DNA of 64,000 bases from a virus (lineage: Duplodnaviria > Caudoviricetes): positions 366-64,365 of the IMG/VR virus record IMGVR_UViG_3300035204_001725. One strand, given 5' to 3'. Positions 12,299 through 33,611 of this stretch are shown here, in pieces. The position numbers were made by a program, and so were the translations under genes. Below the pieces are notes generated by a model, which worked only from the letters and a program-made list of their open reading frames with translations, had not been told where the DNA came from and made no database searches. Each line of letters opens with the position of its first letter. Positions within the stretch are counted from its first letter, which is position 1.

Positions 12299-13241
12299 AT
12301 GTAAAAAATGTAAGGATTGTTTCGAGAACGACGTGGCTTTACATAGACACCTAAAATCTCATAAGATATTAATTGTAGACTATTATCACGCTTATTATCC
12401 TAGGCGCGACTTGCACACTGGCGACTTAATAAAGTTTAAAAACAAAAATCAATATTATTCTGAAGATTTTAATACTAGAACAAGTATGAAGGCGTGGTTC
12501 AAAACCGCCGACGCGGAATCTGCTAAAAATTATTGTCATGATTATTTAAAGAGAAGGGTAACAAAAAAACAAATAAAATACACCCCTTGCGAAGTGGAAG
12601 TACGATCGTTAATGTGTCCGCCTGTGCCGTTTCTACAGCAATCCTTGGGTAGTTATTATCACCACGCGGAGAAAAATTTCGGCTTGATTAACAAATATAC
12701 AAAGTATCCAACTGAGGTACAAGACACTCAAGATGAAGCCAGCGCTTTTAAAAATCGCCTACATAAAATATTCGTTGATACAAGGGAGCAAAAGCCCCTC
12801 AAGTTCGCATTACCAATTGAAGTACAGACCCTAAAGTTCGGAGACTATGCATTTAGTAATTCGTCGATGAGTCTTAATACCTACATAGAGAGGAAGTCAA
12901 TTACGGATTTTATAGGAACCATGAGCGGAGGATTACAAAGGTTTAAGAAGGAGATAGAGAGATCGGAAGAACAAGAGGCTAAATTGGTAGTTTTAGTCGA
13001 AGAGAGTATGACTAGCTGTTTATCATTTAATCACCTGCCCTATGTTTCTAAGAAGATAAAAGCTACGCCTGAATTTATTTTTCATAACGTAAGGGAGCTA
13101 TTACAGTCCCATAAAAATTTACATTTTTTATTTGTTAAGGGCAGGAAAGAAGCCTCTAGGGTAATTGAAAAGCTATTTTTACAAGGAAGGATATATCATA
13201 AGGTTGACTTGCAGCTAGCTTATGACCTTAGAAAATTGTAG
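12291..13241 (+). CDS. C2H2 zinc finger plus ERCC4/XPF-type nuclease domain protein
   Basis: CKKC...LHRHLKSH finger; VDTREQ, GDY and IERKS..D ERCC4 signature. Confidence 0.8.
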   Translation: MVRCKKCKDCFENDVALHRHLKSHKILIVDYYHAYYPRRDLHTGDLIKFKNKNQYYSEDFNTRTSMKAWFKTADAESAKNYCHDYLKRRVTKKQIKYTPCEVEVRSLMCPPVPFLQQSLGSYYHHAEKNFGLINKYTKYPTEVQDTQDEASAFKNRLHKIFVDTREQKPLKFALPIEVQTLKFGDYAFSNSSMSLNTYIERKSITDFIGTMSGGLQRFKKEIERSEEQEAKLVVLVEESMTSCLSFNHLPYVSKKIKATPEFIFHNVRELLQSHKNLHFLFVKGRKEASRVIEKLFLQGRIYHKVDLQLAYDLRKL

Positions 13242-13242
13242 T

Positions 13243-15069
13243 ATGTGGTACTGCCCAGACAAATATAATAAAGATATTCCTAACGTTAATCAAGAGCTCT
13301 TGAAGCTGAAGGGCGATCTTTTAGATAAAGAGGCTAAAATTTCTTTAGCCAAGTTCCTTAAGTCTAACTTGGGGCTAACTACAGAATTAATATCGGATAT
13401 TAAGCTAGCCCCTTTTCAGGAGATTACACTAAAGGGAATGATGAATAGAAACTTCTCCATGTGTGTATGGGGTCGTGGTTGTGGTAAAACTTTTATCGCT
13501 TCAGTCTTCTGCTTCCTTCAGTGTATTTTTGAGCCCGGAACGAAAATTTTAATTGCGGGCCCCACCTTTCGTACAGCGAGATTTATATTTGAAAATTTGG
13601 AAAAGATAGTAGACTCTAAGGGGGCGGAGCTGTTAATGCAAGCTTTCGGAGCAAAGTCAAAACGCAATGATCAATTTAAGTGGGATATTAATGGCGGCAC
13701 GATTACGGCTATTCCGTTAAGCGGTGAAAAAATTCGTGGTTTCCGCGCTAACGTACTCGTGCTCGACGAGTATCTCTTACTCCCGGAAGATTTGATTAAA
13801 ACAGTTTTAATGCCCTTTCTGGTGGCGCCGCAAGACATGAAAGAGCGGATAGAGATAAGAGAAATGGAAGACAAGCTCATCTCTGAGGGTAAAATAGAAG
13901 AGGGGGACAGAATGGTATTTGAAAACGACTCCAAAATGATTGCTTTGTCTTCTGCCTCTTATACGTTTGAAAATTTATATAAACAATATAAAGAATGGAC
14001 AGAAAAAATTTATAGTTCAGAAACGTCTGACGCAAATTATTTTATTTCTCAAATGGGATACGAAGCATTACCAGAGCATATGATTGACACAACTATTATC
14101 GAGGAGGCCCAAAATGGAGGGCAAAGTCATTCTAGCTTTATGCGAGAGTACTGCGCTCAATTTACCGACGGGTCGGATAGCTATTTTAGTGCAAAAAAAA
14201 TGCACCTGTGTACGGTGCCAGACGGAGAATCGCCGACAACAAAAATAATGGGCGATAAAGATAAAAAATATATACTCGGCATTGACCCCAGCTTCTCTAA
14301 TAGTCCGACCTCTGACTTTTTCGCTATGTCTATTTTAGAGCTAGACGAAGAAGCGCAGCAAAGTACGTTAGTTCATAGCTATGCGATTGCGGGCGGGAAC
14401 CTTAAGGACCATATCCGATATATGTATCATGTAGTTAAAAATTTCAATTTAGAAATGATTGTTATTGATAATGCAGGTTATCAATTTATAGATAGCTGTA
14501 ATGAAAATGGCTTATTTAGAAATGATAAAATAGAATTAAAGTTTTTTGACTTTAAAAGCGACTTGGATGGCGCGGATTATGATAAAGAGTTAATTAACGC
14601 GAGAAGAGCATATAACAAAGAAGGGAAAGTCATATGCTTTAAGCAAGTGTTTTCGTCTGACTGGCTACGCAAGGCTAATGAGCACTTACAGGCCGCTATT
14701 GATCATAAAAAGATATGGTTTGCTTCAAAAACGGTAGCTAACCCGACCGCTTTCAATAGGTACTCGAGCCAAAGAGTCACCTTAAAAAACATCCCCGAAC
14801 CGACGGTACTTGAATTTATCGAAAGTCAGGACGCTTTAATATATCAAACAAAAAAGCAATGTACCCTAATTGAAGTTAAAACGACCGCAAGGGGCACACA
14901 AACATTTGACCTTCCTCAGCACCTAAAACGCTCCACAAGCGCGTCTAGGGCTCGCAAAGATAATTATACGACGCTTATGCTATCTAATTGGGCAGCTAAA
15001 TGCTACATTGATATGATGGCAAAACCTGTTGAAGATAATGTTGGCACTTTTGTTCCAAGGATGATATAA
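13243..15069 (+). CDS. terL: Terminase large subunit
   Basis: LAPFQ Q-motif, GRGCGKT Walker A, IRGFRANVLVLDE Walker B, LSSA coupling motif, EYCAQF, and LGIDP...DF RNase H-like nuclease. Start is probably 13243 (track: 13222). Confidence 0.92.
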   Translation: MWYCPDKYNKDIPNVNQELLKLKGDLLDKEAKISLAKFLKSNLGLTTELISDIKLAPFQEITLKGMMNRNFSMCVWGRGCGKTFIASVFCFLQCIFEPGTKILIAGPTFRTARFIFENLEKIVDSKGAELLMQAFGAKSKRNDQFKWDINGGTITAIPLSGEKIRGFRANVLVLDEYLLLPEDLIKTVLMPFLVAPQDMKERIEIREMEDKLISEGKIEEGDRMVFENDSKMIALSSASYTFENLYKQYKEWTEKIYSSETSDANYFISQMGYEALPEHMIDTTIIEEAQNGGQSHSSFMREYCAQFTDGSDSYFSAKKMHLCTVPDGESPTTKIMGDKDKKYILGIDPSFSNSPTSDFFAMSILELDEEAQQSTLVHSYAIAGGNLKDHIRYMYHVVKNFNLEMIVIDNAGYQFIDSCNENGLFRNDKIELKFFDFKSDLDGADYDKELINARRAYNKEGKVICFKQVFSSDWLRKANEHLQAAIDHKKIWFASKTVANPTAFNRYSSQRVTLKNIPEPTVLEFIESQDALIYQTKKQCTLIEVKTTARGTQTFDLPQHLKRSTSASRARKDNYTTLMLSNWAAKCYIDMMAKPVEDNVGTFVPRMI

Positions 15070-27934: not shown

Positions 27935-29437
27935 ATGAGCAGTTATAAGCCGCCCGTTAGGAGCAATAAGATAAATAGGAACTTTCAAATAAAAGTACAT
28001 TTGTACTTTAACCCTAATTCTTTTAATAGATCTACAGATCCAACGCCGAGGTTTTATTTGGCGCCCATAGAGCTGTTACATGTAGAAGACGCGGCTTTTT
28101 CAGATAAAGCAGAAGAAAACGGGTATGTTAGGTATGCGAATAACTATTGGAGATATAAGGACAACACCTCCCTGTCAGAGTCTGAAGTTTTATCTATTTA
28201 CGAAAAAATAAAAACTAGTTATCCGTATGGATATATAACAAATGACCCAGCGTCTATTAATAAATATATTGCTGACGTAAAAGAAAATGAAGGCTTTCAG
28301 TCCTTTTATAAAAAATATTGGGAAAATAACTCGGCAAAAATTATCGAGCCAAGTTTCGCCTCAGACGGAACAAAGGAATATCCTTATTCATATATAGAAT
28401 TTACAATAAACGAAATTGTTACTCAAAAATATACGGTGGGCACCGTTCCAGCCCTAGAAGATGGTTTAACAACTGCCGCGGAGTATGGAACAGGCACAAT
28501 TTATTCAGAGCCAAGTATGTGGGCTTGTAACGACGACATTATTCAAGTCGGAACAAACGGTACAAGATTTTCTGTGCAAGGTATTCCTCATTACTCATTA
28601 AAACTTCAAACTAGCGGAAAATATAGAATTGATTTAATGTCAGATCTTGAAGGCTATAATTCAATGTACGTATGGCCCACGGGAGGGTCTTATGGCGGTT
28701 ATAGCGGTTATAGATTTAGACTAAGCACCGGGATAGATGGTAGTCACAATGGGTTTTCTGATTATACGAACGGAGTAAGCTACATCGAGACGCCTGAAGT
28801 AGGTAATTTTTTTACGAAAGTTATTCCAAAAACTAGCTATTTGGGCGGCAACGACGATACACACCCATATTATTATAGCGGAAGCTCAGATGGTTTTGGT
28901 TTAAGCGGGAGTGGGTCGGGAACGCTAGCAACGGGTATTAATATTAGCGGCTTTGGATATGATGAGGCCCCGCTTCTTACTTTAAGAAAACGCTCAACTT
29001 ATTACTTTAATCAATATGACAGTTCTAACGTTGGGCATCCCTTGTATATAAGCACTCATCCGTCTGGTCAGGGTTCTCACCTATACACCTCCGGTGTTAC
29101 ACATCATTTTTTTGGGGGAGACACTGTTTTAGGGGGCTCCTATTTACCCGGGACAACGGGTTACCACGTTAAATTTACGGTACCCGAAGACGCGCCGAGT
29201 ACGCTTTATTACGGTTGTCTCAATCATGCGTATATGGGGGGGCAAATTAACATTATAAGTGATCAGCCTCCCGCGTCTTACACGGGAAGTATTCCGCAAG
29301 AAAGTATCCTTATAGATTTAAGCAGTAACACAGAGGAAAAGACGATACATTACTACTCTCCTGACGTATCAGGTATGGGCGGAAGAGTTTTTATCAAAAA
29401 TGACTGCTCGGATGACGTTTTGTTTGCGAATTATTAG
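27935..29437 (+). CDS. Probable virion protein with cupredoxin-like repeat(s)
   Basis: LTLRKRSTYYF.Q...N.GHPL...VP.DAPSTLYYGCLNHAYMGGQINI, plus a degenerate second copy (YYSPDVSGMGGRVFI). Confidence 0.6.
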   Translation: MSSYKPPVRSNKINRNFQIKVHLYFNPNSFNRSTDPTPRFYLAPIELLHVEDAAFSDKAEENGYVRYANNYWRYKDNTSLSESEVLSIYEKIKTSYPYGYITNDPASINKYIADVKENEGFQSFYKKYWENNSAKIIEPSFASDGTKEYPYSYIEFTINEIVTQKYTVGTVPALEDGLTTAAEYGTGTIYSEPSMWACNDDIIQVGTNGTRFSVQGIPHYSLKLQTSGKYRIDLMSDLEGYNSMYVWPTGGSYGGYSGYRFRLSTGIDGSHNGFSDYTNGVSYIETPEVGNFFTKVIPKTSYLGGNDDTHPYYYSGSSDGFGLSGSGSGTLATGINISGFGYDEAPLLTLRKRSTYYFNQYDSSNVGHPLYISTHPSGQGSHLYTSGVTHHFFGGDTVLGGSYLPGTTGYHVKFTVPEDAPSTLYYGCLNHAYMGGQINIISDQPPASYTGSIPQESILIDLSSNTEEKTIHYYSPDVSGMGGRVFIKNDCSDDVLFANY

Positions 29438-29444
29438 AATTTAT

Positions 29445-29473
29445 TTGACTTAAATAATTTAATACTGTATAAT
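29445..29473 (+). promoter_or_regulatory. Near-consensus sigma70 promoter for the ribozyme transcript
   Basis: TTGACT (29445-29450), 17 nt, TATAAT (29468-29473); predicts a start near 29479-29481. Confidence 0.85.
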
Positions 29474-29479
29474 ATAATA

Positions 29480-29701
29480 GATTTAAATCGGCCTTATTGG
29501 GTGAATTCGGTAGAACTCTCTCGTAGACAATACCGAGCCAAGTCGGAAGTGGGCTTAGTGCTTCCGAAGGGTGTAGAGACTAGAGGGTGAGTCCCAACAA
29601 TAACCCCTCCACGAGCGCCCAACACCGAAAGGTGAAGATATAGTCCGAACTGTATGGCGACATACAGAAGTCGTAATTAAAAAAGCGACGGTAACATATT
29701 G
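29480..29701 (+). ncRNA. ORF-less group I intron ribozyme (IA-like), lacking an upstream 5' exon
   Basis: P3 TTGGGTG 29497-503 / CGCCCAA 29616-22; P4 TTCGGT 29506-11 / ACCGAG 29532-37; P6a TCGGAAG/CTTCCGA; P7 GACTA 29578-82 / TAGTC 29641-45; P7.1 GAGGG/CCCTC; P8 CACC-GAAA-GGTG; J8/7 AAGATA; P9 CTGTATG-GCGA-CATACAG; P9.1 GTCGT/GCGAC; omega-G 29701. Confidence 0.93.
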
Positions 29702-29777
29702 GATTACGTGATTGGTGCAGTGTACTAACTAGGGACCATGCAGTTTCTAGCCAAGTAAACTAAATTGCGTGTCGGCT
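29702..29777 (+). ncRNA. Predicted 76-nt circular RNA product (exon of the permuted intron)
   Basis: Bounded by omega-G 29701 and U29777; the predicted junction GGCU|GAUU pairs 8/8 with IGS AAUCGGCC, with the U-G wobble at the splice site; folds by hand into a rod. Confidence 0.7.
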
Positions 29778-29794
29778 GAACCCCAATTAATATT

Positions 29795-30181
29795 ATGGCT
29801 AAAAAAAAGAAAAGCGCGAAAGCGTCAAAGAAAAAGGTAGAACTAAAAGAGATGGATCAAACCGATGGAATGGACCAGACCGAAAAGAAGTTTCAATCCT
29901 CTACGTTGGATCAAGTGTGGGGAGATGATGGAACCTCTCAGTACAGGACCATGGACGCTGAAGTTTATGAAAAGGTTATTCATAACATGTCTAAAGCCGA
30001 CTTGAAAGCAGAAGCAATTAGGGTTGGACTATTGCCTATTGATAATGTTGATCAGCTTGTAATTAGGCTGGTTAGGCAATTTAATTCACACGTGTCCGCA
30101 TATAAAATGCCTCTTGATCAACAAAAAAAGGGGATGACTCTAAGTGAAGAGTCTATGAAAATTCTGGGAGAAGGTAAATAA
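29795..30181 (+). CDS. Hypothetical protein with a Lys-rich N-terminus
   Basis: 128-aa ORF starting 18 nt after the predicted 5' splice site. Confidence 0.7.
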   Translation: MAKKKKSAKASKKKVELKEMDQTDGMDQTEKKFQSSTLDQVWGDDGTSQYRTMDAEVYEKVIHNMSKADLKAEAIRVGLLPIDNVDQLVIRLVRQFNSHVSAYKMPLDQQKKGMTLSEESMKILGEGK

Positions 30182-33552: not shown

Positions 33553-33580
33553 AAACCTCACTGAAAAGTGGGGTTTTTTT
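33553..33580 (+). terminator. Rho-independent terminator
   Basis: AAACCTCACT-GAAA-AGTGGGGTTT plus T tract. Confidence 0.85.
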
Positions 33581-33581
33581 A

Positions 33582-33611
33582 TTTACATTTCTTATTATTT
33601 AAAAATATAAT
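33582..33611 (+). promoter_or_regulatory. sigma70-like promoter
   Basis: TTTACA-18 nt-TATAAT after the terminator; the region is AT-rich, so a chance match is possible. Confidence 0.4.

Follow-up and report, generated by a model that had tools for sequence, protein, structure and literature searches.

Group I ribozymes have been rearranged in the laboratory to manufacture circular RNA. In the Tetrahymena permuted intron-exon (PIE) design, the ribozyme is placed upstream of the RNA to be circularised, and circles are obtained (Cui 2023). We describe an element of similar arrangement in a 64,000-nucleotide stretch of phage DNA, referred to throughout as the window (positions 366 to 64,365 of IMG/VR record IMGVR_UViG_3300035204_001725; Duplodnaviria, Caudoviricetes; an uncultured virus with a CheckV completeness of 42). 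The element comprises a group I ribozyme followed by a 76-nt segment (29702-29777, plus strand), and the most likely reading is that of a permuted group I ribozyme gene of natural origin, by which this conserved rod-shaped exon would be back-spliced into a circle. As in the engineered PIE constructs, the order is 3' splice site, exon, 5' splice site, with the guide sequence pairing to the far end of the exon, and the same products would be expected, a circular exon and linear intron pieces. The window element differs in being natural, in being permuted exactly at the P1 loop so that nearly the whole intron forms one upstream piece, and in having for its exon a very short non-coding rod, with a stem that itself holds the two ends close to each other.

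A natural permuted arrangement giving a circular exon-containing RNA has been described for ND5-717, a mitochondrial group I intron of mushroom corals (Chi 2019). Back-splicing there joins the coding exons of a mitochondrial gene, whereas the exon in the window is a 76-nt non-coding phage RNA, in a unit with a promoter-like site of its own and, in some members of its family, a terminator-like hairpin. Bacterial group II introns of circularly permuted form stand alone, interrupt no gene and yield small RNA circles (Roth 2021). These introns are branching ribozymes, whereas the phage ribozyme in the window is of the group I class and would use an exogenous G. The Discussion of the same paper also considers the lariat-capping ribozyme GIR1, a group I derivative that lies upstream of a gene and sets the 5' end of its mRNA (Roth 2021). 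GIR1 makes a 3-nt lariat cap by branching, in contrast to the window core, which is a standard group I core with an omega-G and a P1 wobble. Our literature search, which had subscription journals and supplements outside its scope, turned up engineered PIE systems, permuted group II introns and reviews, and found no natural permuted group I ribozyme from a phage or bacterium. Natural circular RNAs made by ribozymes are rare, and permuted group I ribozymes are otherwise an invention of the laboratory.

Arrangement of the ribozyme and splice sites

A single Rfam family is found in the whole window, the group I intron RF00028 at 29446-29667 (64 bits, against a gathering score of 50), and no other credible family is found between 29300 and 29900 even at E-values up to 10. 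The 76-nt exon lies within a 357-nt gap between a 500-aa tail-fibre-like open reading frame (ORF; 27935-29437) and a 128-aa ORF (29795-30181). The element is thus intergenic and has a promoter-like site rather than an exon upstream, showing neither the canonical order of an intron nor the interruption of a gene. Its parts are as follows.

29445-29473, plus strand: sigma-70-like promoter, TTGACT (29445-29450), 17-nt spacer, TATAAT (29468-29473), 11 of 12 matches
29486-29493, plus strand: internal guide sequence, AAUC (29486-29489) followed by GGCC (29490-29493)
29497-29701, plus strand: core of the group I ribozyme, lacking P2 and comprising P3-P8 and a P7.1/7.2-type insert, matching RF00028
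29650-29667, plus strand: P9, part of the group I core
29670-29689, plus strand: P9.1, with the loop AAUUAAAAAA, invariant across the 51 homologous loci described below
up to 29701, plus strand: 3' end of the core after P9.1, GGUAACAUAUUG, terminating in omega-G 29701
29702-29777, plus strand: 76-nt exon, in which a predicted ligation of U29777 with G29702 would close the circle; its ends are matched exactly by covariance model R1 (88.8 bits)
29774-29779, plus strand: 5' splice site GGCU↓GA, cut after U29777, with GGCU as the P1 partner of the guide

Homologous loci were collected with patterns taken from three parts of the ribozyme: the P4-P6 region (49 loci in a viral search), the stretch from P9.1 to the 3' splice site (59 loci), and the guide with P3 and P4 (62 metagenome loci and 4 genome contigs). 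Ten of the 62 metagenome loci and all 4 genome contigs were rejected as chance pattern matches lacking a ribozyme, and the genome contigs therefore give no clue to the host. After removal of duplicates, truncations at contig ends and chance matches there remained 51 distinct loci with the layout of the window, all from marine viral and metagenome contigs. The RF00028 cut-off was also exceeded in 18 of the 20 homologous loci checked. In cultured phages, blastn found only short pieces of the conserved core, with none of the 101 matching records covering 80% of the query, and searches for related loci with each neighbouring protein alone found none.

The order 3' splice site, exon, 5' splice site is present in 51 of 51 family members, which had been selected by core and guide motifs. 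In each, an A/T-rich leader, often containing a sigma-70-like promoter, is followed by the guide and, three bases on and with no P2, by P3; the remainder of the core with P9 and P9.1 leads to GAUAACA..UG, the exon, the exon end ..UCGGCU and then R-A. The exon is 75-80 nt long throughout and exactly 76 nt in 30 of the 51. By manual count, 30 of the 49 homologues with enough upstream sequence have a promoter-like site that reaches 9 or more of 12 matches and whose end is 0-20 nt from the guide region, and the two promoter hexamers are the only conserved parts of the relatives' leaders compared. Rfam aligns a conventional P1, with two non-standard pairs, to this upstream stretch. We rejected that helix because it falls on the A/T-rich promoter-like site and shows no compensatory changes; the alignment there is probably spurious.

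The 3' splice site is placed after the omega-G, G29701, which lies in the conserved motif UG↓GA. Some members of this ribozyme subfamily are ordinary introns of capsid-like genes, and in 8 of 10 such relatives examined frame 0 directly after UG↓GA is an open capsid-like frame (for example DEFRAEVIRD...PMKRD), which validates this assignment.

The 5' splice site is located by its pairing with the guide. In P1, the exon end GGCU (29774-29777) pairs with the guide GGCC (29490-29493), leaving a G29490-U29777 wobble at the cleavage site. Among 39 non-redundant loci, 33 combine GGCC with GGCU and 5 combine GACC with GGUU, with a single mismatch; in the raw list of all loci with a recognisable exon end, the GACC guides are paired with GGUU in 10 of 10 cases. 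Since guide and exon end change together, the 3' splice site comes before the 5' splice site, an order that makes the ribozyme a permuted group I ribozyme, from which the exon would be expected as a circle. A sequence-only reading made before this analysis had predicted a 76-nt circle here; the unit is indeed bounded exactly by the group I 3' splice site and the downstream 5' splice site, and its circularity remains a prediction.

The other half of the guide, AAUC (29486-29489), could form P10 with the exon start GAUU or extend P1 by pairing with the GA after the 5' splice site. The two bases past the 5' cut are complementary to the guide in 39 of 39 loci: the first of them is G in all three loci with a guide C, and opposite a guide U there are 29 loci with A and 7 with G. 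For P10, positions 1 and 2 are paired in 39 of 39 loci and position 3 in 28 of 39, and wherever the guide carries G at position -3, in 12 loci, the third exon base is C. Over positions 3-5 there are 64 paired cells across the 39 loci, against 54.8 +/- 2.2 when partners are permuted, a value reached in none of 5000 permutations. Exons starting with AAC have matching guides, with up to 8 contiguous pairs in one locus (L136). Taken together, covariation lends moderate support to P10.

The exon as a conserved rod

Covariation among the homologues shows the 76-nt segment to be a conserved structured RNA that folds as a rod. A MAFFT alignment of the 51 homologues (alignment A1) places the apical hairpin of some classes out of register, and for this reason a covariance model was built and the sequences were realigned. 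The model (R1), built on 14 close sequences, gave 32 matches (31 distinct rows), all of which span model positions 1-76; in the window it matches exactly 29702-29777. The resulting alignment (A4) is fitted to the model and so leans towards the structure by construction. The features of the rod are as follows.

29702-29715, plus strand: 5' strand of the terminal stem; 29702-29704 pair with 29771-29773 and 29706-29715 with 29760-29770, A29763 being bulged
29716-29719, plus strand: internal-loop UGCA, pairing with the apical-loop UGCA at 29739-29742
29723-29726 with 29754-29757, plus strand: middle helix, UACU with AGUA
29729-29750, plus strand: apical hairpin, CUAGGGAC (29729-29736), loop CAUGCA (29737-29742) and GUUUCUAG (29743-29750)

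The whole structure is 80.3% paired on A1, compared with 36-42% when partners are slid, and none of 500 column shuffles reaches its score. On the model-fitted A4, 95.5% of cells are paired overall and 22 of 25 pairs are compensatory. The terminal stem is the clearest part (96.2% of cells paired on A1, with 12 of 12 pairs changed on both sides; 96-98% over both alignments, with 12 of 13 pairs compensatory on A4). For the apical hairpin, 94.2% of cells are paired and 8 of 8 pairs are compensatory on the model-fitted A4, with 61.9% paired on A1, where it is partly out of register. The middle helix is 88.2% paired on A4 (2 of 4 pairs compensatory) and weaker on A1 (62.8%). In one class, that of L105, RNAfold favours another central fold, a 9-10 bp hairpin using GGCA; this class hardly varies.

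The helices named in the sequence-only reading, which had folded the segment by hand, are all present both in the sequence and in the RNAfold structure, and the homologues conserve both the length (75-80 nt) and the structure. The terminal stem had been given a slightly different extent from the one that the homologues support. In particular, bases 1-3 of the exon pair with the three bases before GGCU (G-C 40, G-U 7 and A-U 3 on A1), so that the circle would be closed by a GGCU tetraloop (29774-29777) in place of the 9-nt junction loop proposed earlier. The earlier reading had taken the many G-U pairs as a sign of selection on RNA. Of the 25 pairs in the window, 6 are of this type, and for 44 of the 51 homologues the more stable fold is that of the plus strand. 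The description as viroid-like holds for the shape alone. Viroids are autonomously replicating RNA genomes of a few hundred nucleotides that are not encoded in DNA, whereas this RNA is encoded in the DNA of phage contigs, is 76 nt long and has no replication features; the region also has no Rfam match to a self-cleaving ribozyme of the kind found in viroids or to the pRNA family. The exon shares its length of 76 nt with tRNAs, and ARAGORN finds no tRNA or tmRNA in the window.

Pairing between the internal and apical loops

The two UGCA elements had been proposed to be palindromic sites through which copies of the RNA might kiss. Our data support their being a real interacting pair, on the strength of covariation between the two sites. 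RNAalifold on A1 favoured pairing of the internal-loop element with the apical-loop element, and the resulting helix, whose core pairs are 29717-29741, 29718-29740 and 29719-29739, is 87% paired on A1 and has compensatory changes in 4 of 4 pairs. When all 4278 column pairs were ranked without bias by corrected mutual information, 29719-29739 came 5th, 29718-29740 9th and 29717-29741 16th, the top ten consisting of eight terminal-stem pairs and two loop-loop pairs. Twenty distinct letter combinations occur at the four loop-loop positions, at least three of the four pairs being kept in 17 of them and all four in 10. The classes include UGCA/UGCA, GCCA/UGGC, UGCC/GGCA, UGGG/CCCA, UAGC/GCUA, GGCA/UGCU, GCCG/CGGU, CGCC/GGCG and more. 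Since most classes other than that of the window have complementary pairs that are not palindromic, it is complementarity between the two sites that is conserved, and neither palindromy nor self-kissing. A free-form search for loop complementarity in each sequence was noisy (mean 4.25 pairs against 3.47 with cross-partners; at least 4 pairs in 72.5% against 46.5%), and we base our conclusion on the column tests.

If the middle helix and apical hairpin stack, the internal and apical loops would lie about 13 stacked pairs apart on steric reasoning. The loop strand is immediately next to the hairpin's 3' strand and its partner lies upstream, which we take not to be the arrangement of a classical H-type pseudoknot. 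For these two reasons pairing between molecules seems no less likely than an unusual fold-back of a single molecule. The phi29 pRNA provides an analogy, which the sequence-only reading had already drawn: its hairpin loop and internal loop have about four complementary, covarying bases, which pair between molecules into rings. The analogy is apt in that a hairpin loop and an internal loop show covarying complementarity here too. No homology in sequence or fold was detected between the two RNAs, however; the window RNA is 76 nt long and probably circular, the window phage has a large terminase, and intermolecular pairing of the RNA is a prediction.

Proposed reaction and its alternatives

Covariation shows how the parts are arranged, how the splice sites pair with the guide, that the exon forms a rod and that its two loops pair. 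From the architecture and covariation we infer the circle, and the reaction, the choice between pairing in cis and in trans, and the function are put forward on the same footing. From this standpoint, the break in the intron would be a circular permutation at the P1 loop and the 76 nt would be the single exon of the gene. Transcription, predicted to start a few nucleotides 5' of the guide, would proceed through the core and omega-G29701 into the exon, whose terminal GGCU would fold back onto the guide. Free guanosine would then cut after U29777, freeing the downstream mRNA (ORF 29795-30181) with an extra 5' G, and in the second step the 3'-OH of U29777 would attack after omega-G, releasing a linear ribozyme and closing the exon into a 76-nt circle. 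Both steps belong to the standard chemistry of group I introns, on which engineered permuted intron-exon constructs also rely. The circle would be a rod made up of a 13-bp terminal stem with the GGCU junction loop, an asymmetric internal loop, a 4-bp helix and an 8-bp apical hairpin. Pairing of three to four internal-loop bases (UGCA) with the apical loop would give head-to-side oligomers, or a fold-back in one molecule.

If this reading is correct, marine phages have long used the permuted design as an ordinary gene, consisting of a promoter, a ribozyme, a 76-nt exon and sometimes a terminator. This would be the first dedicated circular RNA gene in phages, it would provide at least 51 sequence variants of a compact natural circularisation module, and its small RNA with conserved loop-to-loop pairing would be suited to tests of RNA self-assembly. 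Intergenic 'group I intron' matches in phage genomes should then not be dismissed as misannotated introns.

A number of observations weigh against the back-splicing reading. The folding energy of the exon is no better than chance: the linear minimum free energy (MFE) is -18.3 kcal/mol against -16.94 +/- 2.82 for shuffles (z -0.48; 60 of 200 shuffles as good), and the circular MFE, a check suggested at the outset, is -12.5 against a shuffle mean of -12.49 +/- 3.07 (234 of 500 as low). We have therefore dropped thermodynamic significance as an argument for the rod, the case for which rests on the homologues; all these sequences are related, and shuffle controls on them overstate significance. 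P1 is short, at 4 bp with a 2-3 bp extension, and the P1 mismatch noted above, at L117 (1487-1562), sets an exon end GGAU against a GGCC guide, perhaps because the copy is inactive or the sequence contains an error. Some family members have a weak P10: its position 3 is unpaired in 11 of 39 loci, and its contiguous length (3.29) is barely above that of a cross-partner control (2.93). Exon bases 1-3 also pair within the rod, so that P10 and the rod end compete. Six marine RNA runs contained small shares of the query, and in the four compared in detail the circle joint was not seen: their contigs covered only the ribozyme cores of relatives, one of them running unspliced from the ribozyme into the relative's exon, a result that counts neither for nor against a circle. 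These runs also held unrelated, highly abundant pieces over 29634-29673. Finally, when loci were collected from the side of the downstream protein, 31 of 39 viral loci (L167-L205) had the gene alone, the ribozyme and exon lying between promoter and gene in the other 8, and in the window's own class the gene has leaders of 11-26 nt (a range that leaves out L036, with its ATG at +2) with no Shine-Dalgarno sequence, which fits a role in mRNA processing too.

That role is the core of the main competing explanation, which we judge unlikely: the selected function would be to mature the downstream mRNA at its 5' end, with the 76 nt serving as a clamp and the circle as a by-product. A cut that may depend on guanosine or GTP would yield a message with a short leader or almost none. 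An ORF homologous to that of the window, with a Lys/Arg-rich N-terminus, follows the element in 49 of the 51 loci, and GIR1 is a precedent for a group I-derived ribozyme that shapes an mRNA 5' end (Roth 2021). The 31 element-free loci have a terminator, a promoter of the TTAGAC-17-TATAAT type and, in 29 cases, a strong Shine-Dalgarno sequence, compared with a full Shine-Dalgarno match in 24 of 47 element-bearing loci, which have short leaders. Because leaders are short and Shine-Dalgarno sequences often missing where the element is present, ribozyme cleavage probably also matures the mRNA of the 128-aa protein. As the sole selected function, maturation is difficult to reconcile with the 8 of 51 loci in which the 5' splice site is followed, ahead of the next gene, by a terminator-like hairpin and T-run (confirmed by a scan for L074 and L043). 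These loci retain ribozyme, exon and pairings, which indicates that the element is kept even where it is unable to serve a downstream mRNA. Likewise, a clamp would need neither a conserved apical hairpin nor a covarying pairing between apical and internal loops, and the omega-G, the covariation of P10 and the tight exon length point to a second step.

Less probable again is that the exon is freed as a linear 76-nt RNA, by hydrolysis at the 3' site together with cleavage at the 5' site or by attack of omega-G on the 5' site, as happens in the side reactions that yield intron circles. Group I ribozymes can hydrolyse splice sites, the short or imperfect P10 of some family members would be consistent with such an outcome, and the rod would be stable without ligation, its linear MFE being lower than the circular one. 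Against this, the rod end sets G29702 opposite C29773, only four bases from the 3'-OH of U29777, P10 covaries, and circles are formed both by engineered constructs of the same order (Cui 2023) and in the natural mitochondrial case (Chi 2019).

A segment that yields no product, being a decaying intron remnant or a chance hairpin beside an ordinary intron, would agree with the shuffle-like folding energy and with the conventional upstream P1 of the Rfam alignment, but it is highly improbable and already contradicted by covariation, given compensatory changes in every helix and in P1 over 51 distinct homologues, ribozymes above the Rfam cut-off in nearly all loci checked, and a Rfam-called P1 that coincides with the promoter-like site.

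The downstream protein

The gene that follows the exon is listed here with its distance from the splice site.

29795-30181, plus strand: 128-aa protein with a Lys-rich N-terminus, start 17 nt after the 5' splice site, no Shine-Dalgarno match

The protein has 42 homologues, several of them from marine surveys (Tara, GOS) and none functionally named, and the gene for this small Lys-rich protein is widespread in marine phage contigs. Pfam and PHROGs give nothing meaningful for it, and tblastn against cultured phages gives no match. Its structural model has a pLDDT of 66 overall and of 85-89 at residues 61-100, with a confident helical core at about 55-102. The fold of this core weakly matches SAP domains (3'hExo, DEK, Tho1 and the Rho N-terminus) at E-values of about 1, with match probabilities above 0.9 for the top six and of 0.57-0.80 for Tho1 and Rho. 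The model thus hints at a nucleic-acid-binding domain of the SAP/HeH type. The phage structural genes of the window are a large terminase (13222-15069) and tail-fibre-like genes.

Our best guess at the function of the circle is a stable, exonuclease-resistant RNA that acts with or on the adjacent small basic SAP-like protein; the decoy, sponge and packaging RNA suggested in the sequence-only reading are speculative candidates. A more specific and rather unlikely proposal is that the circles are a new class of phage non-coding RNA, in which covalently closed 76-nt rods join head-to-side through the conserved pairing of apical and internal loops into defined rings or chains and form a particle with this protein, for virion assembly, genome condensation or as a sink for a host factor, while the ribozyme switches on the protein's mRNA.

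Elsewhere in the window, a terminator-like hairpin at 33553-33576 immediately precedes a promoter-like site at 33582-33611 (11 of 12 matches). The layout of 33553-33611 is the terminator-then-promoter arrangement that ribozyme-free phages have ahead of the small basic protein gene.

Relatives of the ribozyme and of the exon

Among the ordinary introns of the same ribozyme subfamily in capsid-like genes, those of L044/L050 and L063 have P3-P6 0.8-1.0 kb upstream of P9.1 and so carry a large insertion within the intron, probably an ORF. The closest relative of the window core in a cultured phage (47 nt at 91.5% identity) is the first of three tandem group I intron matches in Pseudoalteromonas phage H101 (L002; KR534323.1), at 1453-1694, 1763-2091 and 2097-2418 with 66, 54 and 80 bits. 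The introns are separated by 68 nt and 5 nt and lie in an unannotated stretch behind a 436-aa hypothetical gene.

A more distant ribozyme with the guide GUCC occurs on the minus strand of L012, where GGAU lies 62 nt past a possible omega-G. The intervening RNA of about 62 nt has a rod fold (-15.5 kcal/mol), P10 is weak, model R1 gives no match and a different ORF follows downstream; L012 may represent a second permuted family. Three stand-alone units of the window's family, L126, L135 and L161, share a GGGGCGUGGAGAUACACGAAAGAAGGCGUGUG-like segment about 15-60 nt past the 5' splice site and before the terminator, which may be another small hairpin element.
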